Positions 3,881-62,239 are shown, counted from the first letter of the stretch. The stretch is DNA of 64,000 nucleotides from Chiloscyllium plagiosum (GCF_004010195.1 NC_057751.1:8090137-8154136), one strand, 5' to 3'. Translations and numbers: made by a program. Notes: generated from the letters alone by a model not told the origin.

Positions 3881-3992
3881 GAAATAACAAAAAAAAAACA
3901 GAGTACAGTGGAAGTGCACAACAGATCTATCGCCTTTTCCAAAAACAGGAGAGACAGATTAATGCTTTGGTTGCAGATCCTTCATCAGAATC
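3881..3992 (-). mobile_element. Decayed PLE pseudo-LTR arm with degenerate hammerhead
   Basis: Minus strand ctgatgaaggatctgcaaccaaagcattaa; GAAA core is mutated. Confidence 0.4.
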
Positions 3993-4383
3993 TTAGTCTT
4001 CAGGTTCCATTAGATGTATTCTGCATTACCAGGATTTTGTAATTGCTCAACCCAAACTCAGTCTTTTTAAGAGAACACGGTTGTTTGGTTCCTCCAACCT
4101 GGCAACAGTCCATGTTATATCTGCTGGCATCATGTTATATCTCCATCACAGTTAGGACAAAGAATGATTACTGATACCATTTCGTGGATATGCCTTGCAC
4201 ACAAATATAGGTTGGGGTAATTAATTGACATCACCTTTAGCTTTAGAGCTCCATCAATTTAAAAGTGATTTGCTCTCTTGGCAGACTGAGGTTATCCCTC
4301 CTATTTCTTCAGGAGTTCACCCAAAGCAACACAGGGGGCAGACCAATGACAATAAAAACTGAAAGAAATCTGGATGCTGTAAA

Positions 4384-4690
4384 GCAATTTCTTCAGCGCA
4401 TTGTGTTTATGAACAAGAAATTAACATTGGAATCAAAAACAGAAATTTCTGGAAAAACTCAGCAAGTCTGGCAGCAAGTGTGGAGAGAAATCAACATTAA
4501 TCTTTCGAGTCCATTGACCCTCCCTCAGATCTGGACTGAACAGTTCTGAGGAAGGGTTACTCAACCTGAAACATTAGTTTAGATTTCTCTCCACAGATGT
4601 TGCCAGACCTGCTGAGCTTTTCCAGCTATTTCTGTTTTTGAAACCAATATTAATTTCTTGTTCAAAACCACAATGTGCTACAAATATTGC
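4384..4690. mobile_element. PLE-derived foldback (family C) with two back-to-back hammerhead motifs
   Basis: Imperfect inverted arms ~4384-4530 and ~4543-4690; plus ctgagga-agggttactcaacct-gaaacatta at 4546-4576; minus ctgaggg-agggtcaatggactc-gaaagatta from 4528. Confidence 0.75.
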
Positions 4691-4989
4691 TTCTCCAGCA
4701 CTTTCTGTTTCTGTTTTCATTTCAAATTTCCAGCAACCGCAGTTCTCTGTTTTATTTTTATGTTAATTTCTTGCTGCTAGTCTTGGCACTGCCAGTTGCT
4801 GTGAGCACAGAGCACAGTCTCATCTTTATACTTCCACATCTTACATCTGCCAAAATTAACTGCAAGAGGACTTATGTGACTCCTACAATTATTGCACTTC
4901 ACTAATACAGCTCAGTATAGTCATAACTTTGACAACAAATTGAAATTGCTGGTTCCGGAGGGAAGATTTGGAATTGATGGAGTGTATTT

Positions 4990-5365
4990 CACAACCTTAA
5001 GTAACCCCAAAGAGTTTTGCAGCCAATGGTGTACTTCAGAAGTTACAGAAATGTAGGCAACATGACAGTTAATTTACAAACAGCAAGTCCCCAGAAGAGC
5101 AACGTGATAATGATGAAAGAAGCAATTTTAGTGATGGTGTTTCAGGGATAACTATTGGCCTGTCTACTCATAAAGGGAGATATCCTTTGCTCTCCTTGGA
5201 AGACAGTGACGTGAGATCTTTCTCATCCACTGGAGAGACCAGACAGTCAAAATTTTGATGCTAGCACCCCAACCAAAATGCAACCCTTCTGACAGTGCAG
5301 CACTCCCCCAGCCTTGCCAACTGAGTTTCAGCAGAGGTGTCTGTGCTTGGGTCTGGAGTGTGGAT
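4990..5365 (-). mobile_element. Old Deu-domain-like SINE
   Basis: gacagtgcagcactccc and gatct...atccac motifs antisense to the 503-1345 copy. Confidence 0.45.
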
Positions 5366-5481
5366 AGAAGTATGAGTTCGGTCCTGATTTTTGCTGAAAC
5401 AGATTTGAGTGTCCAATGCTTTTTTAAAAAAAATTGTTCAAGGAATGTTAGTGTCACTGACCAGGTCAATATTTATTGCCC

Positions 5482-5633
5482 GGAGAAAGTGAGGGCTGCA
5501 GATGCTGGAGATCAGAGCTGAAAATGTGTTGCTGGAAAAGCAACCTGAAGAAGGGCTCATGCCTGAAACGTCGATTCTCCTGTTCCTTGGATGCTGCCTG
5601 ACCTGCTGCGCTTTTCCAGCAACACATTTTCAG
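5482..5633 (+). mobile_element. PLE pseudo-LTR foldback (family A) with 15-bp TSD
   Basis: TSD caatatttattgccc at 5467-5481 and 5634-5648; inverted arms 5517-5541 and 5610-5634. Confidence 0.85.
5545..5572 (+). ncRNA. Minimal type I hammerhead ribozyme motif
   Basis: CUGAAGA-A-GGGC UCAU GCCU-GAAAC-GUC. Confidence 0.7.
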
Positions 5634-11125: not shown

Positions 11126-11507
11126 ACTGTCGTCCAAGTGACCATGGAGTGTTGCAGCAATGCGTGCATCTTGGCAGATGATGCTGCAACAAGGTATTCC
11201 TGACGGATAACAGTGCATGCTGGCAGATTCCCACCTATTCCGGCCGTGCTGTCCAGAATGATGGAGTGGCTTGCTGTTGAGCCCAGTGGTAGAGGCACCA
11301 ATCCTGTAATCAGTTCTGTCCTCGATTGTGCCACACATCTTGAGTGTCTCAAGACTTCATTCAAAAATAATGGCCCCTTATTGCCAAGATTTTTGAACTG
11401 TTGCAGTGACCGGGCTGTTGTTAATTCAAGTATTGTTGTCTCACAGTCCTCAACGTGAGCAAGCAAAGCTCATTGTGTTCAAAGGAACAAAAGCAAAGCA
11501 ACATCGT

Positions 11508-11808
11508 GGGTGGAACAGTGGCACAGTGGTTAGCACTGCTGCCTCACAGCGCCAGAGACTCGGGTTCAATTCCCGCCTCAGGCGACTGACTGTGTGGAGT
11601 TTGCACATTCTCCCTGTGTCTGCGTGGGTTTCCTCCGGGTGCTCCGGTTTCCTCTCACAGTCCAAAGATGTGCAGGTCAGGTGAATTGGCCATGCTAAAT
11701 TGCCCAGAGTGTTAGGTTAGGGGTATGGGTGGGTTGCGCTTCGGTGGGGCGGTGTGGACTTGTTGGGTCGAAGGGCCTGTTTCCACACTGTAAGTAATCT
11801 AATCTAAT
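11508..11808 (+). mobile_element. HE1/V-SINE
   Basis: tRNA head (tggcacagtgg, ggttcaattcc), V-domain (gtgtggagtttgcacattctcc...), CR1-like tail, (taatc)n. Confidence 0.9.
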
Positions 11809-15635: not shown

Positions 15636-16255
15636 ACAGGGGAAACTTGATGAACATCCCATGAACAAAAGTCTAATGTCACTTTAGATCTTGCATTCCC
15701 AAGAAGAGTCACGTTAACTCTGGTTCTTCCTTCACAGAGGCAGGTGGATCTGCTGAGTTTCTTCACCGCTTTCTGCTTTTTGACTAATTTCACATATCCA
15801 GCATCCACAGTACTTTTGCTTTTATCACCCTTTTCAAGTCACATGCGTTTTTTTTAAAGAAACCAAACAGTTTTGAGATGTTATGAGACACTTCCAGGCC
15901 TCCCTGGTTCAGAAGTAGGAGCACTACCACTGCAGCACAAGAGCCCCCTCAACCAGTTCAAGATGATAAAGTGGAACGGGTCACTTGCTATCCCGACAGG
16001 TGTGAACACTGGTCACCCACTCACGAGGCTGAGTTACTTCATTCTTCTCACCCACGTCTTTGGTGTCAATTTCATGGGGAGGTAGAGCAGCAACTGGTTC
16101 ACTTATCACTTTATAGGCCGTCTCTTTTGGAGGTCGAGTGTAAAGCTGTCTGAGGCTGACAACATCCGCCAGCCAGTTTACCACATTGTGCTGCTCTTGG
16201 AGAGAGAAAAAGAAAAACTGGTGCCCACTCAGAAAGATTTCTCTGACAGCTTTCT

Positions 16256-16591
16256 GGGCAGCATGGTGGCACAGTGGTTAGCACTGCTGCCTCACAGCGC
16301 CAGAGGCCCGGGTTCAATTCCCGCCTCAGGCGACTGTCTGCGTGGAGTTTGCACATTCTCCCCCTGTCTGCGTGGGTTTCCTCCGGGTGCTCCGGTTTCC
16401 TCCCACAGTGACAAAGATGTGCAGGTTAGGTGAATTGGACACGCTAAATTGCCCGTAGTGTTAGGTGAAGGGGTAAATGTAAGGGAATGGGTCTGGGTGG
16501 TGGCTCTTCGGAGGGTCAGTGTGGACTTGTTGGGCCGAAGGGCCTGTTTCCACACTGTAATTAATCTAATTTAATCTGTAAGTAATCTAAT
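16256..16591 (+). mobile_element. HE1/V-SINE
   Basis: Complete head, V-domain and tail with taatc repeats. Confidence 0.9.
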
Positions 16592-17029
16592 ATAAGCTTT
16601 CAGGTTGGTGAGTTTGCTCACAGACTGTCTTCAGTCTCGGCAGTACAGGAGAAACTGGATGGGGCGCCCGATTCTCGGAAAAGCTCAAGGGGCATGGATG
16701 TGTACTCTGTCTCCTGCTCAAGCTGCATTGAGGCAGCTCAGCATGGCTCATTAGACATCAACTTCTAAAAGCCTGAACCTATGTGCAGTTTTAGTCACCA
16801 CTCTACCAGAAGGATTTGGAAAAAATGGAGAGTGCAGAGAAGATTCACAATGATGTTGCCTGGTCTCAAGGGCATTGGCTGTGAAGAAAAGTTAAAAAGA
16901 CTAGGATTGTTTTCACTGAATAGACAGCAACTGAGGAGAGAGCTGATAGAGGTCTACAAAATTTTGAGAGGCATAGATAAGGTGGATAGCCAGAGGCTTT
17001 TTACTGGGGTTGAAGGTACTGGGGTTGAA

Positions 17030-17440
17030 GGCGACAGAATCAACACGGACATCTACTACAAACCGACCGACTCCCACAGCTACCTGGACTACACCTCCTC
17101 CCATCCTGCCCCCTGTAAAAACGCCATCCCATTCTCCCAACTCCTTCGTCTCCGCCGCATCTGCTCCCAGGAGGACCAGTACAAAATACGTACAACACAG
17201 ATGGCCTCCTTCCTCAAGGACCGCAATTTCCCCCCCGACATGGTCGACGGTGCCCTCCACCGCATCTCCTCCACTTCCCGCTCCTCCGCCCTTGAGCCCC
17301 GCCCCTCCAACCGCCACCAGGACAGAACCCCACTGGTCCTCACCTACCAATCTCCATGTACAGCGCATCATCCGCCGTCACTTCCGCCACCTCCAAACAG
17401 ACCCCAGCACCAAGAATATATTTCCCTCCCCTGCCCTATC
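17030..17440 (+). pseudogene. Penelope-like element ORF fragment (RT thumb/linker)
   Basis: TDIYYKPTDSHSYLDYTSSHPAPCKNAIPFSQLLRLRRICS...PLVLTY, continuing after a frameshift as PTNLHVQRIIRRHFRHLQTDP. Confidence 0.85.
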
Positions 17441-17572
17441 AGCATATCATGTGAATGTTACTTGCCTCTTGTCAGCCCAAGCCTGGACATTGTCCACATT
17501 TTGGGCATGGGCTACATCAGTGTCTGAGGAGTCATGAATGACGTTGAAGATTGTGCAGTCATCAGCAAACAG
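17441..17572 (-). pseudogene. Non-LTR RT fragment containing the FADD motif
   Basis: Minus strand reads FADDCTIFNVIHDSSDTDV...DNVQAWADKRQVTF. Confidence 0.65.
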
Positions 17573-17784
17573 GACTGCAGAACATGGATCAGATCTGTTT
17601 GTTGTGGAATCGCTTATCTCTGCATATCAATTGTTGCTTATTCTATTTGGCATGCAAGTAGCCCTGTTTTGTAACTTTGCCAGGCTTTACTAGCTTCGCT
17701 TATATTCCGAGTGAAGAAAAAGCAGTGGATGATATACGCTTAAGTGTTGTTGTGCTAGTCAGCTACCTTAACGCTATATATAAT

Positions 17785-18096
17785 TCAGTCAAATCCATCA
17801 AATTCAGCACCGCCTTCCTAACCTGAGATCTTCTTCCCGACCTCTCCGCCCCCACCCCAGTCTGACCTATCACCCTCACCTTGACCTCTTTCCACCTATC
17901 ACATTTCCGACGCCCCTCCCTCAAGTCCCTCCTCCCTACCTTTTATCTTAGCCTGCTGGACAAACTTTCCTCATTCCTGAAGAAGGGCTTATGCCCGAAA
18001 CGTCGATTCTCCTGTTCCCTGGATGCTGCCTGCACTTTTCCAGCAACACATTTCCAGCTCTGATCTCCAGCATCTGCAGACCTCACTTTCTCCTCC
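17785..18096 (+). mobile_element. PLE 3' UTR and pseudo-LTR (family A)
   Basis: Nearly identical to the reverse complement of 56660-56940; contains a hammerhead. Confidence 0.85.
17977..18004 (+). ncRNA. Minimal type I hammerhead ribozyme motif (intact core)
   Basis: CUGAAGA-A-GGGC UUAU GCCC-GAAAC-GUC. Confidence 0.75.
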
Positions 18097-18157
18097 TTGA
18101 AGGTTCAATTACAAGGGGACACAGTGTTAGGTGAAGGGGTAAATGTAAGGGAATGGT

Positions 18158-18469
18158 GGGCGGCACGGTGGCACAGTGGTTAGCACTGCTGCTTCACAGC
18201 GCTAGAGACCCGCGTACAATTCCCGCCTCAGGCGACTGACTGTGTGGAGTTTGCACGTTCTCCCCGTGTCTGCGTGGGTTTCCTCCGGGTGCTCCGGTTT
18301 CCTCCCACAGTCCAAAGATGTGCAGGTCAGGTGAATTGGCCATGCTAAATTGCCCGTAAGGGGTAAATGTAGGGGTATGAGTGGGTTGCGCTTCGGCGGG
18401 GCGGTGTGGACTTGTTGGGCCGAAGGGCCTGTTTCCACACTGTAAGTAATCTAATCTAATCTAATCTAA
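18158..18469 (+). mobile_element. HE1/V-SINE, young
   Basis: Complete structure with (taatc)4 tail. Confidence 0.9.
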
Positions 18470-19503: not shown

Positions 19504-20314
19504 GAGCTGAAAAATGTGTTGCTGGAAAAGCGCAGTAGGTCNNNNNNNNNNNNNNNNNNNNNNNNNNNNNNNNNNNNNNNNNNNNNNNNNNNNNNNNNNN
19601 NNNNNNNNNNNNNNNNNNNNNNNNNNNNNNNNNNNNNNNNNNNNNNNNNNNNNNNNNNNNNNNNNNNNNNNNNNNNNNNNNNNNNNNNNNNNNNNNNNNN
19701 NNNNNNNNNNNNNNNNNNNNNNNNNNNNNNNNNNNNNNNNNNNNNNNNNNNNNNNNNNNNNNNNNNNNNNNNNNNNNNNNNNNNNNNNNNNNNNNNNNNN
19801 NNNNNNNNNNNNNNNNNNNNNNNNNNNNNNNNNNNNNNNNNNNNNNNNNNNNNNNNNNNNNNNNNNNNNNNNNNNNNNNNNNNNNNNNNNNNNNNNNNNN
19901 NNNNNNNNNNNNNNNNNNNNNNNNNNNNNNNNNNNNNNNNNNNNNNNNNNNNNNNNNNNNNNNNNNNNNNNNNNNNNNNNNNNNNNNNNNNNNNNNNNNN
20001 NNNNNNNNNNNNNNNNNNNNNNNNNNNNNNNNNNNNNNNNNNNNNNNNNNNNNNNNNGGAGGGAGTGGTCTTTCCAGAACGCTGATAGGGGAGGGGAGGG
20101 AAATATATCCTTGGTGGTGGGGTCTGTTTGGAGGTGGCAGAAATGACGAAGGATGATACGATGTATCTGGAGGTTGGTGGAGTGGTAGGTGAGGATCAGT
20201 GGGGTTCTGTCCTGGTGGCGATTGGAGGGGCGGAGTTCTAGGGCGGAGGAGCGGGAAGTGGAGGAGATGCGGTGGAGAGCATCGTCAACCGCATCTGAGG
20301 GGAAATTACGGTCT
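19504..20314 (-). mobile_element. PLE insertion spanning the assembly gap
   Basis: pLTR end 19504-19541; PLE ORF 20058-20314 antisense and homologous to ~17220-17440; TSD ttgtggttatgt at 19492-19503 and 20315-20326. Confidence 0.8.
19542..20057. other. Assembly gap (516 N)
   Basis: Run of N. Confidence 1.
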
Positions 20315-20460
20315 TTGTGGTTATGTTCATACCTGGGTATCTAAGGCAAGGGAGTAAGTAGGATTTACCATTGTGACTGAAGCCGATAATGGCCAGTAGA
20401 CACTGTGGGGGCTGGAATGCATCATCAGCCTTGGGAGCTCAAGGTTAACTTAACTTGTTG

Positions 20461-20805: not shown

Positions 20806-21689
20806 CTTTCTAAGCTCCTTCAAAGATATATCTTTGTTATAGTACCCGTTCTTCAAGCTAATTGGTTAACTGTGAGGAAAATTCTTATCAGACTCACAAC
20901 GTCATCTCAGTTGCCAGATGCTGCCAGACCTGCCTGTCAGTTTCTCCAGCAATTTGTTTCCTCTCTCAGATTTCCAGCATCCACAGCAATTCGCTTTTAA
21001 TTAACAGGGTTAATTATTCATTTGTTCATCTGATCACGCCATTAGGATGTAAGATGGGATGCTCTGGCATCTAATATCTATGCCTTGGAGCCAGAAGGTC
21101 TGTTCAATCCCGCCTACAATGCATGTGTGTCATAATGGATTGAAAAGACTGAATTACCCAAAGTGGGAGGTGAGGCATAAGATGAGTTAAGGGATGGGAG
21201 GCACAGATTTACAAGATTGCACACCCTTGTATAAACTGACTATCAAGAATGAGCTCTGTGAAAGTTATCAGGAAGTGAGAGTGGGCTTGCTCATCACCAT
21301 GTTGTCAGCGCAGATCCTGTCATCACATACTTGTTCACACCTGTCTCAGGAACTTCATCCAAACCACAGTGTTCAAAGCAATGCAGACAAGGTGCTTTCC
21401 TGTGTTTCCAGATTCAGTAAATGAGCACCAGCCCATGCCCAAGTCCCACGCACCCTTCAGTAACTATCAGTGGCAACTGGTTCACCAGTGCATCAATTGT
21501 ACGGTTCCCAATTTCACGTTCACATCTTCTCATGGACTAAAAACTCCCTGGTTCTGTTATCTCCTTCAGCTCAACAACACTGAGGTCTTTGTGTTCCTCC
21601 AACTCTGGTCTTTTGCACATCTTGGCAACTGATCCTGCAACAGTCCCAGTCACAAGCTTTGACATTCCAGCAGTCAAGCAGTCTGTGTC

Positions 21690-23044: not shown

Positions 23045-23880
23045 TAAAGAACTGCAGATGCTGGAAATCAGAAACAGAAACAGAAACTTCTGGAAGGGCT
23101 CAGCAGGTCTGGCCGTGTCTGCGGAGAGAAATCAGAGTTAATGTTTCAGGTTTAATGACCCTTCCTCAGAACAAACCTGTCCATTTTCTTCCTCCCTTCT
23201 CAGTGTCCAAGGGCCCAAACACACCTTCCAGCTGAAGCAGCACTTTGCCTGCACTTCACTCATTCTGGTCTACTGCATTTGCTGCTTTCAATGTGGTCTC
23301 CTCTACACTGGGGAAACGAAGTGTAGGCTGGGCGGCTGCTTCACAAACACCTATGTTAGGACCTCAACAAAGACCCTGAGCATCCAGTTGCCTACCACTT
23401 CAATACATTACCGGTTCCCTGGCCAACATCTCTGTATCAGGCTTGCTGCAGTGCTCCAGTGGAGCTCAGCGTAAGCTGGAAGAACAGCACCTCATTTTCC
23501 ACTTGGGGACTCTGGGCTCAATATTGAGCTCAATAATTTGAGGGCTTGAGTCACCTTCACATGTCATTACGGCAACCCCCACACACCAGGCCTTATTATC
23601 ACACAGTGTGCTATAACAGAGAATCCATTGCAGCCACTAACAGTCCCCACTAAAACGGCTACTCATTCTCTCAGACGATCATTACTTACTCCTTTGTCTG
23701 TCCTTTGGGCTCCAGCTCCACCAATCATTTACTCCTTACACCGTCCCCCCATCTCAATCTTCTGCATGAAAGCCAACGTTTCCCTGCCTCCCACCAATTC
23801 TGTGGAAGGTTCACTGGAGCCGAAACATTGACTCTGATTTCTCTCCACAGATGCTGCCACACCTGCTGAGACTTTCCAGC
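23045..23880 (+). mobile_element. 5'-truncated PLE (family C): inverted pLTR, GIY-YIG endonuclease remnant, 3' UTR, pLTR
   Basis: 23181-23550 reads QGPKHTFQLKQHFACTSLILVYCICCFQCGLLYTGETKCRLG...HPVAYHFN...RKLEEQHLIFHLGTL across frameshifts; hammerhead-like motifs on minus from 23168 and on plus at ~23800-23830. Confidence 0.85.
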
Positions 23881-23883
23881 AAG

Positions 23884-23976
23884 GGAGACAGTATGGACTG
23901 CAGAAGCTGGAAGTCAGAGTCAGTAGATGTGGAGCTGGAAAAGCACAGCAGGTCAGACAGCATCTGAGGCGCAGGA
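23884..23976 (-). mobile_element. PLE pLTR arm (family A-like)
   Basis: gctggaaaagcacagcaggtcagacagcatc. Confidence 0.65.
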
Positions 23977-24153
23977 TTGCCCACACCACTCTGTAGCCAA
24001 TCCTTCTGAAATGGGTTCACATCTGAAATGGACCAGCCAGTTTCTAGGCAATATTCCCACAAATAGCAATGTTTTGGCGATCAGATCATTTTTATTTGGC
24101 TATTTGTTTCCTTGATATGCCACTGTACAGGACCGAACTATATTTGTGACCAG

Positions 24154-24785: not shown

Positions 24786-25438
24786 TAGGAATATATCCAA
24801 AGGTATTTTTTGAAATAAATGAAACGTATTTGGGTGAGGATCGATTTTTGCCAAAAGGGGTCTCCCCATTTGTTCTTCAATGTGGTGGAATATTTCCTGC
24901 CCAGCTGAGAAAGCAGATAAAGCCTTCTAAGTCAGTGTGTCACCCTGTCAGAGTTGTACTCCTTTCAGGTCTGCAGTGATTATATCGATCTAGTTTTGTT
25001 GTTCAAGTTCCTGGAGTGGGCCTTCAACCCACAACCTCCTGACTCAGAGGCACAGCAGGAACAATCAACACTCATCCAGATGGAAGAGTCAACTCAAAAT
25101 GTTTCCCTTTCCACAGACCTCAGCATTAACCCACTCACCCAACCCCCTCAGCATCACACTTGTTCGCCTTCAAAAGAAACAAGAAAGGCTGGCATTTGCA
25201 TAGCGCCTGAGGGGTGTTGCAAATGGACCTGCAGCCAATGGAGTGTTTTTGAGATGCAGTCACTTGTAACGCTGACAGTTGTGCCAAATCACACGCAGCA
25301 GAATTTTTGGAAAGTCCATTCTTTATTCCTCTTGCCAATTTCTCACTTACTGTTTCGAAGAGTGGCTCTCACTGAGTGAGGTTGAGATATCAACCGTGGT
25401 CCAGTTCCTGACGCAGGTGTTGGCTGATGCAATAGATG

Positions 25439-25516
25439 CTGGAAATGTGTTGCTGGAAAAGCGCAGCAGGTACATTTCCAGCTCTGATCTCCAGCATCTG
25501 CAGACCTCACTTTCTC
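25439..25516. mobile_element. 78-bp PLE pLTR mini-foldback with 15-bp TSD, no hammerhead
   Basis: TSD ctgatgcaatagatg at 25424-25438 and 25517-25531. Confidence 0.8.
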
Positions 25517-26937
25517 CTGATGCAATAGATGGGCAGGCAGAAGGGCACCACAAAGGAGCCTGAACTCACTCCACGTCCAGATTTCTGTTATTCCCTGCTG
25601 GTTCACACTGTAGTGATAATGACTGGTGATTTGTCCTTTTTAAACCTGAGGGGGTACTGTATGTGTGAGTGTGGGGGTAGGCGTTGGGGGACAATGCAAC
25701 GTTTCCACCACTGCCCTTGACTCAAGTCCACACTAATGAGGATCTGTACATCTGCTGTTCTTGCTCATTTGCACAGCCAGAAATGCTTTTGGCCATTACG
25801 TTAAACTGCAGATTTTTTTTTTCCCTTTTAAATTAACGCAGTGCGAGTGTTAAAAGTCTAACTTTTCTGTCAGAGTATTTCCTCAGAGCTGCTGTTCTAA
25901 TGAACCTTGCACCACTCTCCCCAGCATGCAGAATATTCTGTGCTTTGATTCTCGTTAGGCCTCATTAGTATGTACAAGCAAATGCACAAATCCTTCAGCC
26001 CAGGTCTTTTGGACATGTCAGATGACCTTTCTGCACAGGAACTAGCTGCAGAAATCATTTTGTGGCTTTTTTTTAAAAAAATCAAAATCTCCATTCCAAA
26101 TTTGGACTTCAGTTGAAGTTCTGGGCACAATTAGGAGTCAGGATGTTAAATGCACATTTTCCTAAGTTCTGAAATGTTTCCACTCATTTGTATCATCGCA
26201 AATGTTTGGATTACTATAATCAGGCAGTGACTTTAACTGTAAATGCTTTTAGTTTTTACATTAAAATACATTCCTTGGCATATTTAAGAGTTGCAAACTA
26301 TTGGTGGTTTAAATCCCTGAAAATGAGTTTACCTCTGAAAAATAAGCATTTTGAATCAGTGTACCAAAATTCACCATCTGTCAGGAACCTGAACTTTAGA
26401 TTAATTAAAATGAGAACTCAGAACCATACAAGACTAGTGACTGGTTTCAATGTAATTGAGTGGTCCATTTCTCCGTCGATTAAAAATAACATTTGGAAGA
26501 TTCGTAAAGGGGAACTGATAGCTGCCATTGTCCACCGAAAGCACCATAAGCAGATGTTTGCAATCGTAATCAGTTTGGTCTGGGAGTTGACTGGTTCTGT
26601 CAGTAGCCATTAGATCACAGAATCTCAATATACAGAGCTGTACTTATTGCTTGTGGGTGCTTAATTCTTGGTGGGTGATTTGGTGCAATGGCAATAACTC
26701 TACCCAATTAACTCTTACAGGGACACTGGTGCAAACTGTCCTCCTAGTGCCTTGCTGAACTGGTCACTGTTCATGCAGTCAGTGACGGAAAGGAGTTCGG
26801 TGGAAGGCCAATCCAATCATCCAAGAATTTCACTCTGTCAATCGATCAAGAACGGCAAACAGTTCCACTCCGTCTCCTCCCTGAAAGGCAGCAAGGCCAA
26901 TGATAGTCAAAGCTACTGCATGGCTAGTCAAACCTGG

Positions 26938-27119
26938 TAAAAACAATGACTGCAGATGCTGGAAACCAGATTCTGGATTAGTGGTGCTGGAAGAGCACAG
27001 CAGTTCAGGCAGCATCCGAGGAGCAGCAAAATCGACGTTTCGGGCAAAACCCTTCATCAGGAACGTCGATTTTGCTGCTCCTCTGATGCTGCCTGAACTG
27101 CTGTGCTCTTCCAGCACTA
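26938..27119. mobile_element. PLE pLTR foldback (family A') with 14-bp TSD
   Basis: TSD ctagtcaaacctgg at 26924-26937 and 27120-27133; 61-bp inverted arms 26979-27039 and 27062-27122 with two mismatches. Confidence 0.9.
27034..27060 (-). ncRNA. Minimal type I hammerhead ribozyme motif
   Basis: CUGAUGA-A-GGGU UUU GCCC-GAAAC-GUC. Confidence 0.75.
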
Positions 27120-36807: not shown

Positions 36808-36846
36808 ATGGTTGTTGTGACAACCACCACCAGAGACAACAAACAC

Positions 36847-36875
36847 CTGATGAAGGAGCAGTGCGCCGAAAGCTA
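36847..36875 (+). ncRNA. Minimal type I hammerhead motif
   Basis: cac-CUGAUGA-A-GGAGC AGU GCGCC-GAAAG-CUA-gug; stem I CAC/GUG; one stem II mismatch. Confidence 0.68.
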
Positions 36876-38175
36876 GTGCTTCCAAATAAACCTGTTGGAC
36901 TATAACCTGGTGTTGTGTGTTTTTTAACTTTGTACACCCCAGTCCAATACCGGCACTTCCACATCATATCACTTCGATAGCCAAACAGTAACCCCAAACT
37001 GTTCAGTGTACCTCAAATCCAGGAGAAGATAACATGTCACACACAACAATGCTGCAAGTAGTTGTTTTTGCATGAGAAACGGTGGTGGCTGCTTTTCCAG
37101 ATACTATCAGGATAATAATAGCTACGTCAGATAAAGTCACCAGAGTCCCAGAGTGCTGCGCACTCATTTGGGAGAGTGAGAGAGGCAACTGGTGGTGAGT
37201 TTAACCTGATGGTCACTATGTCTCAGGTGAGGAGTGAGGATGAGAAGGCAGGACCTTCATAATGACCTCAGTCGCTGAGGGAACTGAACCTGTGACTGCC
37301 TTGCAAACCAGCCATCCAGCCAAATGAGCTAACCAATCCTGGTTATATATTTGGATGCTGTCAGAATTCTATCAACTGTATTTTCACGCTGTAGGAACTA
37401 TAACAACTCTGTGTTTTGACAATCTCATGATAATAATGACAGCAATCTAGATACTGTCAAGATTATGACATCACACTTGCGTTAAAGACAATTTTAAATT
37501 GCTCTGTATTCTTGCAAGCTGTATTTTTGTATTCCTGTCTCATTTTTGTAGGTAGAGATAAAAAAAAACAACTTTCCTGCAGAAATCATCTGCAGTTCCA
37601 CAGAATAACAGAGCTGGGGTTAGCTATGGACTGACACTTGCAACAGAACCAGAGTAAGGTCAAACAAGGGCAATTTTTCAGGGAGGTGAGATAATTGGGA
37701 GAAGGATTTTGTTTTGAACACCCGTTTCAGAACTATTTTCAAACAATTCACCGCTTTCAATGGATAGGTGTAACACCTGGTGTGGTAGGGAAATGCAAGT
37801 GTTAAGTTCAGTGAGAACTCCGTAACGGCCTTGTTGATCAGACCTGAAACATCAACTATGCTCCGATTGACTGAGGAGAAGGAATAAACACAATTGCCAA
37901 TGAAACCCTGCAGATGTGAGGAAGAAAGAAGCAATGTGCCAGAGATCTTCCAAGAGGCTGGGCCTTCGGAAGGCAAAAGTAGCAGATGGCAAAGTACTGA
38001 ATAAAAACAACACTTGTGGAATGCAGCAATTGTAACAGTGTCAGTCAGTCATCGGGGTTGTGCAAACTTCACCAACAAGCTTCGATTGCCATAAGGAGCG
38101 AGTGTTGCACTGTCGGAGATCTCTACTCTCTGGTGAGATGTTGTCTTCCGCCATTTCAGGTGGACACTGTAGATT

Positions 38176-38387
38176 GGTAGTCATTGGAACAAGGGCCAGG
38201 TGGATCTCATTGAGTATGAAATCCCTGATTGGGCCCAATCCAGGAGCCCTGGCTGACAGATAGAAACAGGAGTCTAAGGGATTCTCCTCAGTCTGACTCC
38301 TCAGGGACTGACTCTGTCCAACCTAGTTACTGTCCGTATTCTGTGCACATGTAAATAAAAGGTACCTGCCTCCTTGTAGTTATTTCA
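38176..38387 (+). mobile_element. Solo LTR (family L1)
   Basis: gccaggtggatctcat...ccctgattggg...gtaaataaaagg...ttatttca. Confidence 0.6.
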
Positions 38388-38391
38388 AGTT

Positions 38392-38665
38392 GCACAGTGG
38401 TTAGCACTGCTGCCTCACAGTGCCAGAGACCCGGGTTCAATTCCCGTCTCAGGCAACTGTCCATGTGGAGTTTGCACATTCTCCCCGAGTCTGCGTGGGT
38501 TTCCTCCCACAGGTTAGGTGAATTGGCCATGCTAAATTGCCTGTAGTGTTAGGTGAAGGGGTAAATGTAGGGGAATGGGTCTGGATGGGTTGCTCTTCGG
38601 AGGGTCCATGTGGACCTGTTGGGCCAAGGGGCCTGTTTCCACACTGTAAGTAATCTAATCTAATC
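38392..38665 (+). mobile_element. HE1/V-SINE with internal deletions
   Basis: Head, partial V-domain, taatc tail. Confidence 0.85.
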
Positions 38666-41121: not shown

Positions 41122-41207
41122 GCTCCTCGATGCTGCCTGAACTGCTGTGCTCTTCCAGCACCATTGATCCAGAATCTGGTTTCCAGCATCTGCAGTCATT
41201 GTTTTTA
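41122..41207 (+). mobile_element. PLE pLTR arm (family A')
   Basis: Reverse complement of ~26938-27023. Confidence 0.8.
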
Positions 41208-42975
41208 ACATAGAATAAGCTGCACCTTGTCAGTGGCAAAACGTTCTTCCAGTTTTCCTCTCCCCTACATGACCAAGCAGTTTCCTAAACTTAGAAATGA
41301 TGACATCAAACTTCATCATGAGCAGCAGCTCAGCGCCTGGGCTGGGGCGGCCTGCCAATGTCACAGAAAAGCAGAGACAAGGACAAATAGTCACATTGCC
41401 TTTGCACTCTTGGACAGTAGCTTTGGAACACAATGCAGATGGATGCGATGAAAATCCTGTGCCTCTCCTGGCAAACGCTCCAAGAGCTGAATTTGGTCCT
41501 TTCAGCCCAAGGTCCTGCTCAGCATGGGTTCAGCCAGACACGGGGTTGTGCGTCCAAGTCTGTGTAAAGTCGCTCCCACCTTATCAGATTGGTAAAGCAA
41601 AACACTTGGAGGTAAACAGAACTCTCAACCCAGACAGCACAATCACGGCTTTGCAATTCACCTCGCCTTCCAGGTTATTTCTCACAGTGACCCACACAAC
41701 GGGCATCAATTGACACCCATGAACAACACAAAAGGAAATCTTACTTTAAATGCTCACACAGCAACGTAGTGATGCCTAGCATTGTTGCCTGCTGCACTTG
41801 TGCCATTTTTCAAAGTAGTCACATTTGGAACCTAACGACTGGCCAAGTTCAAAGATATTTGTTTTTGCAGTGGTGGGTGCTCATGACGAATAGCCACATT
41901 TTTACTCATGCACACTTGGTAACCAGAGTAACAGTGATGAAAATAATTTTATAAAAATGTGAGGGGGCATAATTCCAGTCAGAAAAGTATTCTGGGGTTG
42001 GGAGGGAGGTGTTGAGGGAGGTTATGTTCCCCACCATTGCACCCTGATTTAATTGTGCTCATTTCTGGGAGTCATAGGTATCGTGAAGATACTTGCTTTT
42101 CTTCACAGATGACAAAGGGGCACTTCAGAAACAGAATTATGAATATATTAAGAGAGTGATCTGCATCACAGTGACAAAGTCATTCAGAGGCAGGCACAAA
42201 GATCGAGCTTGCTCTTTCTTCCTTGCAAAGAAAGGAGAGAAATTACAGCCAGTCTGTGCCTTTGACAAATTAATCTTCCCATCAGCCTGCCAAACAGAAA
42301 TCTTTCTTCTTTATCTGATACTGCAAAGCATAGTCTGCACTATTTATAACTTCGGAGCTGAACTCTAGAAAAGGGGAGGAATTTCACTTACATATCGCCT
42401 TACCACATCTCTCAGAAACATGACAAAGGGCTTAAGAAATACCAACTCGTGGTTGTATGGTGTCTTTCATGACCACAAGATGCCCCAAAGCAATTAATAG
42501 TCAGCAATTCTTGTGCTGCCCCACAAGTGACAGTCTGCCAAAGTGAGAATGACCCATTTATTTGCACTCTTTGTTGTCTGTCTATTAGCCAATCATTAAA
42601 CCAAGTCCGTGCATTAATTCCTGTATCCAACGGGCTTCATCAAAAGCCTTCTGAGAATCTCAGTGCACTATGTGCATCAGCTCTCCTTGGTTTGTCACTG
42701 TTTCAAAAAGCTTTCTCTGCTGGTCCTGGGGAGAGAGAACAGCCCTCCTTTGTACCACCCCGTCCTCCAGGTCACTGTCCGTCAAGCAATGGCAGCATTT
42801 TCCCTGAGGGGGCAAATAAACTCAGCCATGCGGAACTGACCAAGTGCATGACAACCTTTTGAACATGGCACTGTGCAAAGGCTCCTGGAATATCCTGGCA
42901 GTGGGTAATAATCCCATTTCCCACGACCAGGAGAATATGACGGGCTGTGTACAATTGTGGAACTGTGCACGGAAC

Positions 42976-49602: not shown

Positions 49603-50130
49603 AGAAAGCTGAATACATAGTCCAGACCATCACAGAAGCCAACCTCCCATCCATTGACTGCATCTAGACTTCGCGTTGCCACGGAAAGGTTGCTAACATC
49701 ATGAAAGACCCCTCCCAGCGTGGTATTGCTGTCTTCCCACCTCTTCCATCAGGCAGAAGATACAGAAACTTGAATATAGGCAACAACAGGTTCAAGAACA
49801 GCTTCTTCTCCACTGTTGTTAGGTTGATGAATGGTCCACTCTAATTTCAAATCTAATGCTTCTCTGCACCTCATTTGCAACTGTAACCTGCTATGCCTCA
49901 CTCTGACTAAGCATCCTCTGATCTGTATGTCCTTCTTTGCTGTGATCTGCTTGTCCTGCTCACAAAAAACAAAACTTTTCACTGTAATGGGGCATGTGTG
50001 ACTGCAGTTTCAAATACTGCAGTGCTGGAAAAGCATAAGCTGGTCAGGCAGCATCCGATGAGCAGGACAGTCGACGATTCGAGCACAAGCTCTTTATCAG
50101 GAATGTGACGACAATAAGTCAAAACAAATC
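49603..50130 (+). mobile_element. Rex1/Babar-like LINE 3' end, interrupted near its tail by a PLE arm
   Basis: ITEANLPSID...IMKDPSQ...PLPSGRRYRNL...RFKNSFF; 3' UTR aaacttttcactgt; tail resumes after ~50103. Confidence 0.7.
50020..50103 (-). mobile_element. PLE pLTR arm with degenerate hammerhead
   Basis: Minus strand cattcctgataaagagcttgtgctcgaatcgtcgac. Confidence 0.65.
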
Positions 50131-51840: not shown

Positions 51841-51968
51841 GGGGAAAGTGAGGACTGCAGATGCTGGAGATCAGAGCTGAAAATGTGTTGCTGGAAAAGT
51901 GCAGCAGGTCAGGCAGCATCCAAGGAGCAGGAGAATCGATGCTTCGGGCATGAGCCCTTCTTCAGGAG
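51841..51968 (-). mobile_element. PLE pLTR arm (family A) with mutated hammerhead
   Basis: Minus strand ctgaagaagggctcatgcccgaagcatcgattctcc. Confidence 0.75.
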
Positions 51969-55162: not shown

Positions 55163-55319
55163 CAGGAAAACATTTGAATTCACAAACTTTCGGAGCACTG
55201 CCTCCTTTGTCGGGCGCTCCGAAAAGCTGGTGATTCAAGTAAACCTGTTGGACGACAACCTTGTGTTGTGTGTCTTCTGACTTTGTCCACCCCACTCCAA
55301 CACCGGCACCTCCACATCA
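55163..55319. mobile_element. Decayed family B foldback
   Basis: ctttcggagc...gctccgaaaagct...aaacctgttggac, matching the 36726-36966 element. Confidence 0.65.
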
Positions 55320-56073
55320 CCCTTACGTCAAAACAGTGAAGCGGGAGTACATTTCAGCAAATTTCCTCAGAAATCTTCAAAGAGATTTCTTGAAAAGAAG
55401 AAATGTTTTGCAACCCCTGAACTACTGGCTGACCAATCACTTCCCAATCCCACAGGGGAATTCCAGACTCTTAATTCCAGCTTTCAAATTCCACCTGAAA
55501 AGTAAGAACACTTGGTAACTTGCATCCATCGGTTTCTTTGTACACAAGTTGCCGTCAATTGAACAGCTTCTTGACGTTGGCTGATTTGATCTGTTGGCCA
55601 GGGATTGCTCACACACAAAAACAACAGCTTATGAACTCAAGTTACCCCGAGCCCCAGCCACTGTCCTGTGCTGGCTGGAACCAGGTCATTTCGGAGGAGT
55701 GACAATAGGCACAAAACCTTAGTTGGTCGAAGAGTAATGAGGTCACCCTAACAGTGGTCTGAGGCCGGAGTCGATAGTGAAAAGACACAGGTTTGCCAGA
55801 TGAACCAGAACCAAGGAGGAGACATCACATTTCGGGAAGATAAGGAGCAAGGATTAAAATGAAGAATTTTGGGTGTGCCAGCATCGAAAACTCCAGAGAT
55901 CAATCTCCAGTGGAGTGCAGGGCCCTACACTTGGAAGTGTGGAGATAACACTGAGTACCTGGGAAATCACCTGGCCAGCATGAGTTCCTATTCTCAGGTA
56001 TTAGCCTTTGTTTTCTGTAGCTGTTCAAGGAACATCTGAGAAACCTAGTGGGTGTGCGCATAGATTAGATTAG

Positions 56074-56158
56074 TTAAAAATCACACAACACCAGGTTATA
56101 GTCCAACAGGTTTAATTGGAAGCACACTAGCTTTCGGAGCGACGCTCCTTCATCAGTT
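56074..56158 (-). mobile_element. Family B pLTR arm with intact hammerhead core (56128-56156), inserted in a SINE microsatellite tail
   Basis: Minus strand CUGAUGA-A-GGAGC GUC GCUCC-GAAAG-CUA; flanked by gattagattag on both sides. Confidence 0.8.
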
Positions 56159-56457
56159 GATTAGATTAGATTCCCTACAATGTGGAAACAGGCCCTTCGG
56201 CCCAACCAGTCCACACTGACCCCCCCGAAAAGTAACCCACCCAGACCCATTTCCATCTGACTCATGTACCTAACACTATGGGCAATTTAGCATGACCAAT
56301 TCATCTGGCCGGCACATCTTTGAACTGTGGGAAGAAACCTACACAAACACGGGGAGAAAGTAAAAACTCCACACAGACAGTCGCCCGAGGCTGGAATCAA
56401 ACCTGGGACCCTGGCGCTGTGAGGCAGCAGTGCTAACCACTGTGCCACCGTGGCACC
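56159..56457 (-). mobile_element. HE1/V-SINE
   Basis: Antisense head, V-domain and tail. Confidence 0.88.
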
Positions 56458-56659
56458 TTCAGTCTTGTATGATTTGCACGCCTGCTTTTAACCATTTATT
56501 CACCAAACAGTGTGAATTGTTTGTGTGTTTTAACCATCCAATAAAGCCGATTGTTTGTTGATACAGACAAGACTCTTTCCCTCTTTGTTTCGAGCAAGTA
56601 ACTGTTGTCGAGGGCAGTAACCAGGCAACAGATCTCAACTCTCCTATGTTTGTATGTGA

Positions 56660-56988
56660 TGGAAATGTGTTGCTGGAAAAGCGCAGCACGTCAGGCAGCA
56701 TCTAGGGAACAGGAGAATCGACGTTTCAGGCATTAGCCCTTCTTCAGGAATGAGGAAAGTTTGTCCAGCAGGCTAAGATAAAAGATAGGGAGGAGGGACT
56801 TGGGGGAGGGGCGTCGGAAATGTGATAGGTGGAAAGAGGTCAAGGTGAGGGTGATAGGTCAGACTGGGGTGGGGGCGGAGAGGTCGGGAAGAAGATTGCA
56901 GGTTAGGAAGGCGGTGCTGAATTTGATGGATTTGACTGAGACAGGCTGGGGGGAGGGGAAATGAGGAAACTGGTGAAATCCACATACA
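56660..56988 (-). mobile_element. 5'-truncated PLE (family A): ORF end, 3' UTR, and pLTR with hammerhead at 56720-56746
   Basis: TSD tatg(t/c)ttgtatgtg at 56645-56658 and 56989-57002; CUGAAGA-A-GGGC UAAU GCCU-GAAAC-GUC; VDFTSFLISPP ORF terminus. Confidence 0.85.
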
Positions 56989-57282
56989 TATGCTTGTATG
57001 TGGACCTCTGTCGCGAGGCATTCCTCAGCCCTGCAACAAAAATGCAGGTGAAATAAACCCGACTTCGGGACAACTTGACGACGGTGTTGTTGCGGTCCTT
57101 GTAGAGTCAGAGCAGACAAACAGAGGAAGTAGCTGGAAACTGGCCCCGCTGTTCTAACACGATCACAATTCACTTGCAGACTGATGGTGGGAACACGAAG
57201 AGAGACTTGTTTTGGAGCAAGTGTGTCGGACAAACTCATTGGTTCCATCAATGCACTTCAGGGGAGGAAGTCTGCTGGACTC

Positions 57283-57455
57283 AAATAAAACGCAGAACTG
57301 CGTTTGCTGAAGACCTGAAACAAAAGACGGAAATTGGCGGAGAAACTCAGCAGGTCTGGCAGCATCTGCGGACAGAAAACAGAGTTAACCTTCCGCGACC
57401 GGAGACACTTATTTGGAGCTCTGCTTTCTCACCACAGAAGCTGACAGGCTTGTCC
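57283..57455. mobile_element. Decayed family C foldback
   Basis: ctcagcaggtctggcagcatctgcggacagaaaacagagttaac and a partial inverse arm. Confidence 0.5.
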
Positions 57456-58331
57456 AGGTCTCACACAGGTGTAAACCAGACCTGAAGCAATACAACTGAC
57501 TTTCAATGACCGGCTGAAATGCCCTGGCCAATGGCGATTGGGTTCGATAGCAGGGAAGTGCGATATTGCTCGTCCTGGAATGGGTTTTGAACTCTGTTAG
57601 CTTTTGTCTGAGAGGCTGTTGTACCTCTGTCAGACCGATTCCCTTCCCTGTTCGAATAGGTCCACATGGAGCTGTGCAATGTTTGAAAAAGGGATATCAA
57701 GGAGTTGGTGTATGCAGGTAGAAGTGCAAGTAAAAGAGCATGGAAAAAGGCCATTTGATACAAGTGAAATGGCACATGCCCGTGCTGTATTGTGGGGAGG
57801 GTGAAAAGGCTTCAGGAAGGTGAATGCTGGCCACAGTACTCCTCAACGGGAGAGAGACAGTTTACTTAATGGGACGAAATTTGTGTTGAAACCATGGGAA
57901 TGGCCCTGCATGGGTAAGAGGCGTGGTCAAAGTGAGGACAAGAGAGACGATCCTGAAACGGCATGTGGATCACATGACAGCTATCACATGATTACAAACA
58001 CCTTGCTGGAGCTTGTACTCAGTGCAACTTCTGTCCGCCTCACTTCACCTGCGTTACCCTCGAATTCTGTTCTCATCTCCCTCCAGTACATGTATCACAT
58101 CCCCTTGAATTCACAGTGAACAAGTAAGTTGCAATTGGAAGGTGCAACAGCCATGCAAATTATCTAGTCCTCTCTCCCCATCCCCCACTTCAGCATGATT
58201 GTCAGTTCTTTCCACTGAATAGAATTGAATAGAATACCCTTTTATTGTCACATGTACTTAAGTACAGAAGTACAGGAATGCAGTGAAAAGTTTTATAATG
58301 TCATTTCTTACAGCTCCATCTTTAGTACAAG

Positions 58332-58923
58332 TGTTATGGACCAGGCCAGAACCCCTCAAAATATTTTAAGAAGGTAGCCCTGATCTAAACTTTTTTTTTA
58401 TTTTAAAGGCGGATGTGTAGTGGATATTCTAGGTGTGATGCAGCTGGTCAAACCACTTGGCTTTAAGCGAAACAGAATTTATTTAAACACTGCAGTTGAA
58501 ACACTAACAAAAGAAAATGGAATTTAGAATCGCTGAAGTATTGGAAAACCTAACTGACCCAAAACGGCAACCTAACTAAGGAGCTGTTCCAATCTAGTAA
58601 TATACCCAAAGCACACCCCCTGTCAAAAAAAGTAAATTGAAACACAGATTCTTACAGGCAGGAGGGAACAACATCCAAAGAGATTTCAGAGAGAGCCAGA
58701 GAAAGAGTCAGTCAGGAATGACCTGCTTAAGTTTGGAACCCTTCTGGACTGCAGCATCTTGTGACTGCCCAGTTAAACCAAACTTGGAAAAACCTGAACT
58801 GGGAGAACTGGCCACACCCCTGCCCTTGTTAAACTAGACACTTCAGTGCCTCTGCCTTTACGACCTCTCATGGAAAAAAAACCAAGGACAAAATAACCTT
58901 TTTAAAGTGGCAGCTTCATCGCA
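58332..58923 (-). mobile_element. Solo LTR (family L2)
   Basis: tgttatggacc...catcgca; antisense to 24154-24785. Confidence 0.65.
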
Positions 58924-59315
58924 CAGGTACCCAGGCAGAAACCTTTGATACAAAAGAGGAAATAAAAGAAAAGTAGTTGCATTACTTTATAGTGTTTAAG
59001 GAGTACGTTAGAACTAAGCTACAGTTAAAGGATTGACATTACATTACAATGCAGCAGCTGAGCACAGGGGCTTTCGACCGTGGTCTGACGGCCTGCGCCA
59101 GACACCTATCTAACAAACGTGCCACTCCACTCCAAGCCTCCAGTCCACTTCATTTTGCCATTTTTACATTCTGATCACTTAATCTGCACTGTCAACATCT
59201 TTTCTCCCCCAGCACTCTACCGCCTCCCTCCCAATACTACTGCATAAATACTGCCCACTCCACACTTCATGGTAGCTCCAATGAAGAGTCATCGAGGCTC
59301 GAAATGTTAGCTTGG

Positions 59316-59347
<32 letters not shown>

Positions 59348-60605
59348 CCTGTGACCCATTGTTATTTCTGGCATTTTTTTTGGCTTTCAATGCAAGTTAC
59401 CAGTGTTGGTGAACATGTAAAAAATGTCCCCTGGTGGATTAATGAGAGTTTGTCTTATCCTGATAGATCCTTGTTTTGACCAACAGGATACTCTGCAAAA
59501 AAAGACCAATTACCCATACCTTTATGAGCACCCGATGTTTATTTTTTTCTAAATGTTTAGCCAGATATTGCATGGTCAGCACATGCACAAATCTGAACTG
59601 TGTTGCTTCTGATGGGGCTTCCGTTGTAGCTGCTAAATAAGGTTCTGTTCCACAGTGATAGAAGTGCCACTAGTTTTCAATGTGGACCTCAAAGTGCGCC
59701 CTGAAATTACATTTAATAACAAGAAGCAATGAATCATTGGAGTTCCCGAGCTACGCTGCTTTGGGGGATGGGAGGGAGATGAAGCCCAGTCCAGCAGGCT
59801 TTGAGCAACCTAAGGAAATAAATGATTCCATCGGCACTGCTAATAATTACACAGGCTAGGAATACGATACAGTAATTAACTGCAGTGAAAATTGAAATGA
59901 TAGCTAAGGTTAATTAACATTTTACCGCCTATACTATTCAACACATTGCCAAATACTGTATAAAATCTAATTCATACAGCAAAAAAAAATAGAGAGCCAA
60001 CACTTTTCATTACTTCGTTGAAAGCTGCTCGGGCTCCCTCATAAAGAGAGCATTTATTATTAAAAGGACCTTTAGATCTCGAAGTGGGGCCTCAAAGTGA
60101 CATTATGCAGATATCAACACAAAAATGGTGAACCTGTTTAAACACAACATTTTAACTAGGGAGTATGCTGGGTGAAATTAAACAGGTGGGTCATGCCAAT
60201 ATTTATAGGAGTCCACAAACAAATTACGTAACAACCATCTCCTGCTGTTGTGAAAAACATAGAAACAGTCTCGCATTCCCTGGCCCGCAAAGCAACTGAT
60301 AGTGAAGGAAGCGCTTTCCAATTGCAGCCGCTGTCAGAGTGTAGGAATTTTGGCACAGCAAGATCCAATTAACGGTGGTGTGGTAATCATCAGTTGATCT
60401 CAATTGATGGCTTCAATGTTGGCCGAGGCGTCCTTTTCAACAGTAGTAATGTGGTGTACCTTTTACATCCCCCTGAAGGGGGCAAATTCAGTTTCTATTT
60501 TCATGTGTCATCTGAAAGGCAGCATCTTTGACACTGCAGCACACCCTCAGTGCTGCGCTGCAGGGTCTGCCTAGGTTCCTGTGTTCTGCTCTTGAACTTG
60601 GGACT

Positions 60606-62232: not shown

Positions 62233-62239
62233 ACACCGA

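Follow-up and report, generated by a model that had tools for sequence, protein, structure and literature searches.

The window analysed here, 64,000 nt of Chiloscyllium plagiosum DNA (NC_057751.1:8090137-8154136), is repeat-rich eukaryotic DNA with a guanine-plus-cytosine content of about 44% and a single assembly gap of 516 nt (19542-20057). It holds about 22 units derived from Penelope-like elements (PLEs), which cover about 7.6% of its length (gap included) and about 18 of which lack an open reading frame (ORF); that most such units are ORF-less had already been reported in a preliminary description of this DNA, made from the sequence alone. These copies are the hammerhead-bearing ends, or pseudo-long terminal repeats (pLTRs), of at least three PLE families, and we consider it likely that they are one-off, dead-on-arrival products of full-length masters and not of mini-element masters.

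Hammerhead motifs in the window

Using a strict descriptor (CUGANGA, 0-1 extra nucleotide, a stem II of 4 bp or more, GAAA, pairing between positions 15.2 and 16.2, U and H), we found six motifs with a perfect stem II in the whole window, and seven when one stem mismatch was allowed: 5545 (+), 17977 (+), 27060 (-), 36807 (-), 36847 (+), 56156 (-) and 56747 (-). As a background for motif counts we used 12 dinucleotide shuffles of the window, none of which gave a single strict match. With one core mismatch allowed there are 11 matches (0-4 in the shuffles), and with two there are 44 (17-32 in the shuffles), which is mostly noise. Since relaxed scans are this noisy, decayed copies were counted only when a family alignment or flank gave them a family context. 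Nine were accepted by scan and context, 4528 (-), 4546 (+), 23169 (-), 23800 (+), 31937 (-), 50100 (-), 51965 (-), 55213 (-) and 59278 (+), and two more were placed by alignment or by eye, at 3988 (-) and about 57410 (-). With the seven strict motifs and about 11 decayed ones the window contains about 18 hammerheads, or about 110 strict motifs per Mb; the preliminary description, which counted about 14, was right that the motifs are real and low in their number. None of the 11 tandem arrays in the window overlaps a hammerhead.

The seven cores formerly called intact are where they were said to be, apart from 56746, now corrected to 56747. All match the descriptor, with these qualifications: 5545 and 56747 have G10.1-U11.1 in place of G-C, 5545 has a single stem I pair, 36847 has one stem II mismatch and 56156 lacks the 2.1:1.1 pair. 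An extra A lies between A9 and G10.1 in all seven, followed by G10.1-C11.1 in five and by G-U in two. As for the Infernal-type search that had been suggested, our own descriptor recovers all seven, whereas the Rfam models at gathering threshold give no hammerhead match in the window.

The motifs fall into at least three families, as had been claimed. Family A, with subfamilies A1 and A2, has stem II GGGC/GCCC and is cut after GUC; family B has GGAGC/GCUCC and is cut after CUA; family C has a 5-bp stem II. The vestigial helix III (15.2/16.2) is palindromic, ACGU in A, AGCU in B and, in C, ACGU decayed to ACAU. Stem I is UC/GA in A, CAC/GUG in B and GUU/AAC in C, and the 2-3 bp formerly given for it hold for A (2 bp plus a pyrimidine mismatch) and B (3 bp) but not for C and the older copies, which have 3-5 bp (5 bp at 3988, 4 bp at 59278). 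Sequence downstream of the motif is common to A and C, and B has only the hammerhead in common with them. The covariation of stem II noted earlier was recovered and extends to all three helices, which change in a compensatory manner between families while the core is constant. The covariation proposed earlier as a check is thus present at the level of the master lineages, and it indicates that the ribozyme is under selection there.

PLE coding remnants

A tblastn search with 111 PLE proteins found only three coding regions in the window, at 17021-17350 (+), 20316-20059 (-) and 23175-23514 (+). The reverse transcriptase (RT) thumb piece at 17030-17350 is 72-79% identical to four Chiloscyllium proteins (111 matches from 146 candidates), its best protein matches being named Chiloscyllium, Stegostoma, Hypanus and Mobula, and the homologues carry RVT_1 and/or GIY-YIG matches, some of them under the Pfam cut-off. 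The region at 23175-23514 is the start of a GIY-YIG domain and is 47% identical to one of the PLE proteins, P0003. No Pfam family was matched by the PLE fragments of the window, and a homologue search with the 57-residue endonuclease piece gave no candidate, whereas the thumb piece did yield homologues.

In families A and C, thumb or GIY-YIG remnants stand upstream of the motif on the same strand, and it is behind these that the hammerheads at 17977 and 23800 lie. The proposed physical linkage to PLE coding remnants therefore holds at 17030-18096 and 23045-23880 by tblastn; it fails at 56660-56988, where the same search found no coding remnant and there are only the last few codons and a 3' untranslated region (UTR), and the remnant at 20316-20059 (-) is an addition. 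A CX2-5CxxC linker is diagnostic of Neptune/Nematis PLEs. This linker is visible in 8 of the 11 chondrichthyan homologues checked, the corresponding stretch of the window being deleted or in the gap, and we infer from these homologues that families A and C would be Neptune-type PLEs.

For family B, we scanned metagenome contigs for its hammerhead and recovered two loci, L001 and L002, both from marine metagenome. L002 encodes a PLE endonuclease (48-578; 33% identical to P0003 over 148 residues, with the Cys linker) and, about 750 nt downstream of it, a hammerhead (1331-1365) identical to that of family B at 32 of 35 positions, with no likeness outside the motif; its ORF has no Pfam match. L001 represents this element too, but there a piece of the RT is inverted (stretches 3-362 and 967-1001). 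A near-identical hammerhead behind another animal's PLE endonuclease, with no other similarity, supports, together with the anatomy described below, a PLE derivation of family B, and it likewise supports selection on the motif.

The predicted Stegostoma protein P0007 ends in LMKGLRPKRQ (residues 508-522), suggesting a gene model that runs on through a related hammerhead following the GIY-YIG domain.

Anatomy of the insertions

Positions of arm ends are numbered relative to C3, the first core nucleotide of CUGANGA. Two groups of 3' ends can be distinguished among the copies, one at about +76 to +90 and the other at about +115 to +125, the longer ends having an additional tail of about 35 nt. 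Seven units consist of two arms placed head-to-head, each unit with a junction of its own. A single arm bears the tail in six of these, and in five of the six the arm without it stops at +76 to +90. Of the 23 boundary pairs tested, 7 show an exact target-site duplication (TSD) of at least 8 bp (8-15 bp); one of these lies inside a microsatellite and is ambiguous. Clear 14-15-bp TSDs surround only three short ORF-less units, so that the statement that most copies are TSD-flanked is borne out for a minority only.

One family A copy is a 5'-truncated PLE at 17031-18096 (+) that interrupts a LINE (long interspersed element) remnant with an 8-bp duplication (17010-17017/18097-18104), which makes its thumb and its pLTR one insertion. 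It runs from RT-thumb coding sequence (17021-17440) through a scrap of unrelated sequence that replaces the endonuclease region (17440-17785) to the 3' UTR, the hammerhead (17977-18004) and a tail ending at 18096. The replaced region includes an opposite-strand LINE RT scrap with a FADD motif, and at the 5' junction there is, besides the TSD, a perfect 15-bp duplication of target sequence (17002-17031). A second 5'-truncated family A PLE lies across the assembly gap at 19504-20316 (-), with thumb and linker coding sequence (20316-20059), a 3' end (19541-19504), a hammerhead presumably in the gap, and a 12-bp TSD (19492-19503/20315-20326). A third family A copy, at 56659-56988 (-), retains the last ORF codons, a pyrimidine-rich 3' UTR of 240 nt and a hammerhead (56720-56747) but no tail, between TSDs at 56650-56658 and 56994-57002.

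The other family A units are short. The two-armed unit at 5482-5633 (+) has an inverted arm with tail (5482-5541), a direct arm from -1 to +90 with the hammerhead at 5545-5572, and a 15-bp TSD (5467-5481/5634-5648); the micro-unit at 25437-25518 has two arms (+56 to +90, and +79 to the tail end), no hammerhead and a 15-bp TSD (25424-25438/25517-25531). The A2 two-armed unit at 26938-27119 (-) combines a direct arm from -3 with tail, the hammerhead at 27034-27060 and an inverted arm from +22, whose pairing with GAAA-CGUC of the hammerhead would trap it, within a 14-bp TSD (26924-26937/27120-27133). Single-armed copies with decayed hammerheads are found at 31853-31942 (-; A2, from -5, hammerhead 31910-31937), 50023-50105 (-; A2, from -5, or -3 if a 6-bp repeat is the TSD, hammerhead 50073-50100) and 51841-51967 (-; family A, from -2 through the tail, hammerhead 51938-51965). 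Two ends lack the hammerhead: an A2 end with tail at 41122-41208 (+), starting at about +41, and a family A end at 23884-23977 (-), starting at about +33. The latter adjoins the 3' end of a family C unit (23882-23884), one of two nested insertions seen.

Family B is represented by a head-to-head unit at 36726-36962, with hammerheads at 36779-36807 (-) and 36847-36875 (+), a tail on the plus arm only and a possible 10-bp TSD found by eye with one mismatch; by an older two-armed unit at 55172-55318, with a decayed hammerhead (55184-55213, -) and a plus arm from +16 with tail; and by a short copy at 56072-56158 (-), from about -2, whose hammerhead (56128-56156) has no stem I. This last copy is the second nested insertion, inside the (AATCT)n tail of a SINE-like (short interspersed element) repeat (56060-56200).

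The family C unit at 23045-23882 (+) has an inverted arm with tail (23045-23171) and a decayed hammerhead (23140-23169, -), the GIY-YIG remnant, and a direct pLTR with a second decayed hammerhead (23800-23829). A head-to-head unit at 4430-4640 carries decayed hammerheads at 4499-4528 (-) and 4546-4575 (+) on arms starting at -1 and -5. It lies within a larger palindrome (4382-4692), both arms of which include about 50 bp of non-tail sequence and then more PLE-end-like pieces; this could be captured flank or a DNA-level inverted duplication. Older copies are an old C-like one at 3885-3992 (-; hammerhead 3961-3988), an old family C one at 57290-57410 (-), whose core is too decayed for placement, a C-like end without recognisable core at 15701-15810 (+), with similar pieces at 20890-20985 and 63262-63325, and a distinct copy at 59274-59330 (+; decayed hammerhead 59278-59308), with a weak family link (nhmmer E=0.03).

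These features correspond to those of PLE insertions in published accounts, which describe an inverted truncated copy and a 30-40-bp tail at one end (Craig 2021, PMC8557442), TSDs of 8-10 bp and solo pLTRs (Arkhipova 2013, PMC3846280) and, for an anole PLE, cutting and extension of both target strands, with RT starting internally at two sites that bound the tail (Frangieh 2024, PMC11167929). Motif and anatomy agree with the earlier view that these are minimal type I hammerheads of PLE pLTRs, and the anatomy fits the insertion by PLE RT and GIY-YIG that had been suggested.

A common 5' edge at the ribozyme core

The start of the arm lies at -1 to -6 in ten of the 16 core-bearing arms; the remainder are two family B arms, starting at -11 and about -25, and four arms that extend more than 240 nt. 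Compared with the downstream truncation rate of 0.0048 per nt this clustering has a binomial tail of about 2e-12, a value obtained with a 6-nt span picked once the data had been seen, with three offsets judged by eye and with the arms of one insertion counted separately; it leaves out 55213, 57410 and 59278 (unplaceable) and the copy at 19541 (core in the gap).

We also compared the stretch 56640-57010, at 85% likeness, with two public contig sets (X1 and X3) and a public poly(A) single-cell RNA set (X21). From the bin 56757-56769 to the bin 56731-56743 depth rises 2.3-fold in X1 and 3.5-fold in both X3 and X21. The fold-back joints, among those listed, stand at -1, -3, -4 and -6, and 79 reads of X21 have a loose end at -4 and continue as an inverted copy. 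The initiator (Inr)-like motif YYANWYY places its A at -4 in families A and C, and is absent from family B and L002.

Three other origins of the edge were rejected. A start at the cut site as the main class does not agree with the core-less arms, none of nine of which starts exactly there (four start within 6 nt), nor with the absence of a read-end pile-up at 56720/56719. Were RT blocked by a structure, on its 3' side, the edge would lie on the opposite side from that observed. Splicing into the hammerhead edge would have a parallel in Drosophila virilis, whose transcript has its start about 120 nt upstream of helix I and an intron in the interval (PMC4209133; PMC2377424), but none of the 15 joints listed, out of 25, has sense-strand GT..AG ends.

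Abundance and transcripts

Contigs matching 56640-57010 number 45,795 in X1 and 29,634 in X3, in keeping with the very many motifs that had been expected genome-wide. If the window is typical, extrapolation gives about 3 x 10^5 hammerhead motifs per genome, shark genomes being of 2.86 pg or more (PMC11024215); the ratio of summed contig depth to flank depth, about 4-5 x 10^5, is a loose consistency check and no copy number. For comparison, 126,247 canonical hammerhead motifs have been reported in the axolotl (PMC7229834). The best-supported joints listed in the public contigs each occur in one contig, at a depth of 6-110, against millions overall.

In X21, 1,685 of 13 million reads match, on both strands, and 94% of them continue into unlike sequence, which fits copies embedded in other transcripts and passed through. 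Read ends show no pile-up, either at the cut site 56720/56719 or elsewhere, in this poly(A) single-cell library, which is weak for starts or cut ends and is of a kind that does not reveal monomeric linear or circular RNA. A further set, X22, gave no matching reads and carries no weight either way.

Decay and folding of the copies

Across 14 copies, private mutations affect 7 of 154 core sites and 44 of 723 sites elsewhere (P=0.57), so that the excess conservation of the core proposed earlier as a check is not distinguishable in the copies. Among the 40 of 100 variant rows listed, those within 56710-56756 are one loop variant and one CpG change of this copy's own.

In all eight predicted folds the probability of the 2.1:1.1 pair is at most 0.011. 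The fold-backs of families B and C are predicted to pair the core fully, that of 27060 to trap helix III (GAAA-CGUC), and most short copies to lack stem I or have it sequestered in fold-backs; 17977, which carries a 9-nt deletion, is the only copy with the family fold intact and outside a fold-back. The half-dimer hammerhead fold lies 4-11 kcal/mol above the cofold optimum, and a heterodimer of 56156 and 56747, the nearest same-strand pair, was rejected, ACGU and AGCU not pairing. Single minimal hammerhead ribozymes (min-HHRs) gave no cleavage in vitro and dimers cleaved weakly (Cervera & De la Peña 2014, PMC4209133). With cores decaying at about the background rate and most copies predicted to be unable to fold, almost all of them would be catalytically dead.

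Origin of the short copies

In the origin that we favour, dead-on-arrival insertion from full-length masters, the PLE protein would nick both target strands and RT would start internally on the RNA, at two sites separated by about 35 nt, which would account for the two groups of 3' ends, the head-to-head arms with one tail and the TSDs. If the master transcript has its first nucleotide at -1 to -6, initiation of RT within the 5' repeat would give a run-off cDNA of 95-130 nt. In the masters, the ribozyme would probably work as a protein-assisted or a tandem dimer; in the anole PLE, the hammerhead cuts only with protein and uncleaved RNA is the main template (Frangieh 2024, PMC11167929).

Several observations weigh against this account or against parts of it. 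No coding remnant of family B lies in the window, and two B arms have outlying starts. Descent from a short master would look the same for the uninverted copies that start at -1 to -6. The loop UCAU and CCUUGG are common to the two short A1 hammerhead copies, unlike the two long ones, which fits subfamilies and also a short-only lineage. Subfamilies diverging upstream may contribute to the depth step, and the four core-less arms within 6 nt of the cut site may represent a minor class from cleaved RNA. The Inr-like motif occurs 6-7 times per 250 nt upstream, in addition to its absence from B and L002. The decay test is small and the core rate nominally lower (4.5% against 6.1%), and a low 2.1:1.1 probability is expected for any minimal hammerhead monomer.

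As to the cause of the 5' edge, an RNA start at -1 to -6 is a reasonable possibility that falls a little short of an even call. Internal promoters and Inr-like motifs have been described in the pLTRs of PLEs (PMC2377424; Arkhipova 2013, PMC3846280). A more specific form, which we put forward tentatively and think on the whole unlikely, is that the transcript of a shark Neptune-type PLE starts inside helix I, at the Inr-like A at -4, and that internal RT starts in the 5' repeat yield a fixed, 'strong-stop-like' cDNA of 95-130 nt as the commonest product, leaving about 10^5 ribozyme-headed stubs; the 5' hammerhead would then lack most of its helix I strand, the template would stay uncleaved and only the 3' or a tandem copy would cut. 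The sharp edge is the one lead offered by these data: should it be the RNA start, the genomic copies would suffice to map the PLE transcript start as well as the two RT start sites, and would be informative on the role of the PLE hammerhead, as the copies would show that the template was used uncleaved.

The copies could have the same dead-on-arrival origin and the edge be a termination hotspot of RT instead, through drop-off past the hammerhead or a protein-bound region, at the pyrimidine-rich tract, or by microhomology fold-back; this is a serious possibility, if one that we would not call probable. The scatter of the ends over -1 to -6 speaks for it, several of them being fold-back joints with short microhomology, and so does the anole hammerhead, which needs the PLE protein to cleave, so that protein may cover the region (PMC11167929). 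A start at the ribozyme edge is moreover without precedent in D. virilis, given the upstream start and intron described there. A structural block, however, would be expected to halt RT before it enters a helix from the 3' side and not after its last strand, as far as we can judge, and the Inr-like motif at -4 in A and C coincides with the largest listed cluster of loose ends near the core.

The preliminary description had instead proposed a system of non-autonomous mini-elements mobilised by PLE proteins. On such a view the short units would be SINE- or retrozyme-like, self-transcribed and re-amplified in trans, the 5' edge being the end of the master. The sharp common edge, the very high abundance (see the contig counts above) and the variants shared by the two short A1 copies agree with this; in rotifers the pLTR sequence suffices for mobilisation in trans (Arkhipova 2013, PMC3846280), and Li et al. 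(2026, bioRxiv 10.64898/2026.07.22.740005) derive retrozymes from pLTRs and report monomers, including in one chondrichthyan. We nevertheless regard it as improbable. All junctions in the window differ and the listed joints are single-contig and of low depth; there is no same-strand tandem, which is what these authors take to mark an active retrozyme; core decay is at background and stem I is lost or trapped; and most matching RNA reads, which represent both strands, run on into unlike sequence, with no pile-up of ends. Transcription by RNA polymerase III (Pol III) is likewise disfavoured by the want of a GTTC-type B box and by internal T4 runs, and a Pol III SINE was rejected on the same grounds.

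It is very improbable that the host retains the dispersed copies as active ribozymes for cutting pre-mRNA. Copies are present in poly(A) RNA reads and 17977 keeps the family fold, but core decay is indistinguishable from background, most copies have lost stem I or have it trapped, single min-HHRs showed no cleavage in vitro (PMC4209133) and read ends do not accumulate at the cut site in a library that is weak for this.

Relation to known systems

The phenomenon itself, min-HHRs in PLE pLTRs, fishes included, was published in 2014. The min-HHRs of metazoan PLE pLTRs described then (Cervera & De la Peña 2014, PMC4209133) have the same core as the motifs of the window, with the extra base between A9 and G10.1, G10.1-C11.1, a palindromic 15.2/16.2 and a short helix I, which in family A is of only 2 bp, as in D. 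virilis; they likewise comprise several families per genome, are mostly single and tied to truncated PLEs, and include some opposite-strand pairs 100-700 bp apart. They were reported in the fish elements Xena, Poseidon and Neptune, and a review restates the finding (PMC6155905). The density in the window, about 110 strict motifs per Mb, greatly exceeds what that study gives, namely 4,000 motifs per genome in the coelacanth and 9,000 in Xenopus, the descriptors being different. The parts of it that were consulted name no shark and do not mention that 5' ends cluster at the core, and our literature search, which left most subscription journals outside its scope, found no account of shark PLE hammerheads or of such clustering. 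The window thus adds sharks to the animals with genomes strewn with PLE minimal hammerheads, at a high density, and the clustered 5' edge is an unusual trait of the short copies.

Endonuclease-containing (EN+) PLE insertion units of the Neptune type have the same 5' truncation, head-to-head inverted copy, tail of 30-40 bp at one end, short TSDs and solo pLTRs, and a GIY-YIG domain with CX2-5CxxC as in our homologues. By contrast, the units of the window are mostly cut to 80-240 bp, and no full-length or partial-tandem copy is present in it. Non-LTR retrozymes (PMC7229834; Li et al. 2026), of which one chondrichthyan was sampled, resemble the window units in being ORF-less, in having a type I hammerhead of PLE-pLTR origin and in occurring as dispersed monomers. 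They are, however, head-to-tail tandems, mostly of 150-450 bp, with circular RNA and canonical hammerheads according to these sources, whereas the window has no tandems, opposite-strand pairs and minimal hammerheads.

Other features of the window

LINE RT remnants matching RVT_1 are present at 34296-35147 (extending to about 35150) and 62161-62673 (to about 63093), presumably of CR1/L2 type. An abundant SINE-like family with an (AATCT)n end, which may resemble the shark HE1 SINE, occurs on both strands at 11503-11807, 16251-16574, 18153-18459, 28216-28523, 38374-38663 and elsewhere. A perfect 48-bp tandem duplication (1.9 copies; 30673-30765) is unrelated to the hammerheads.

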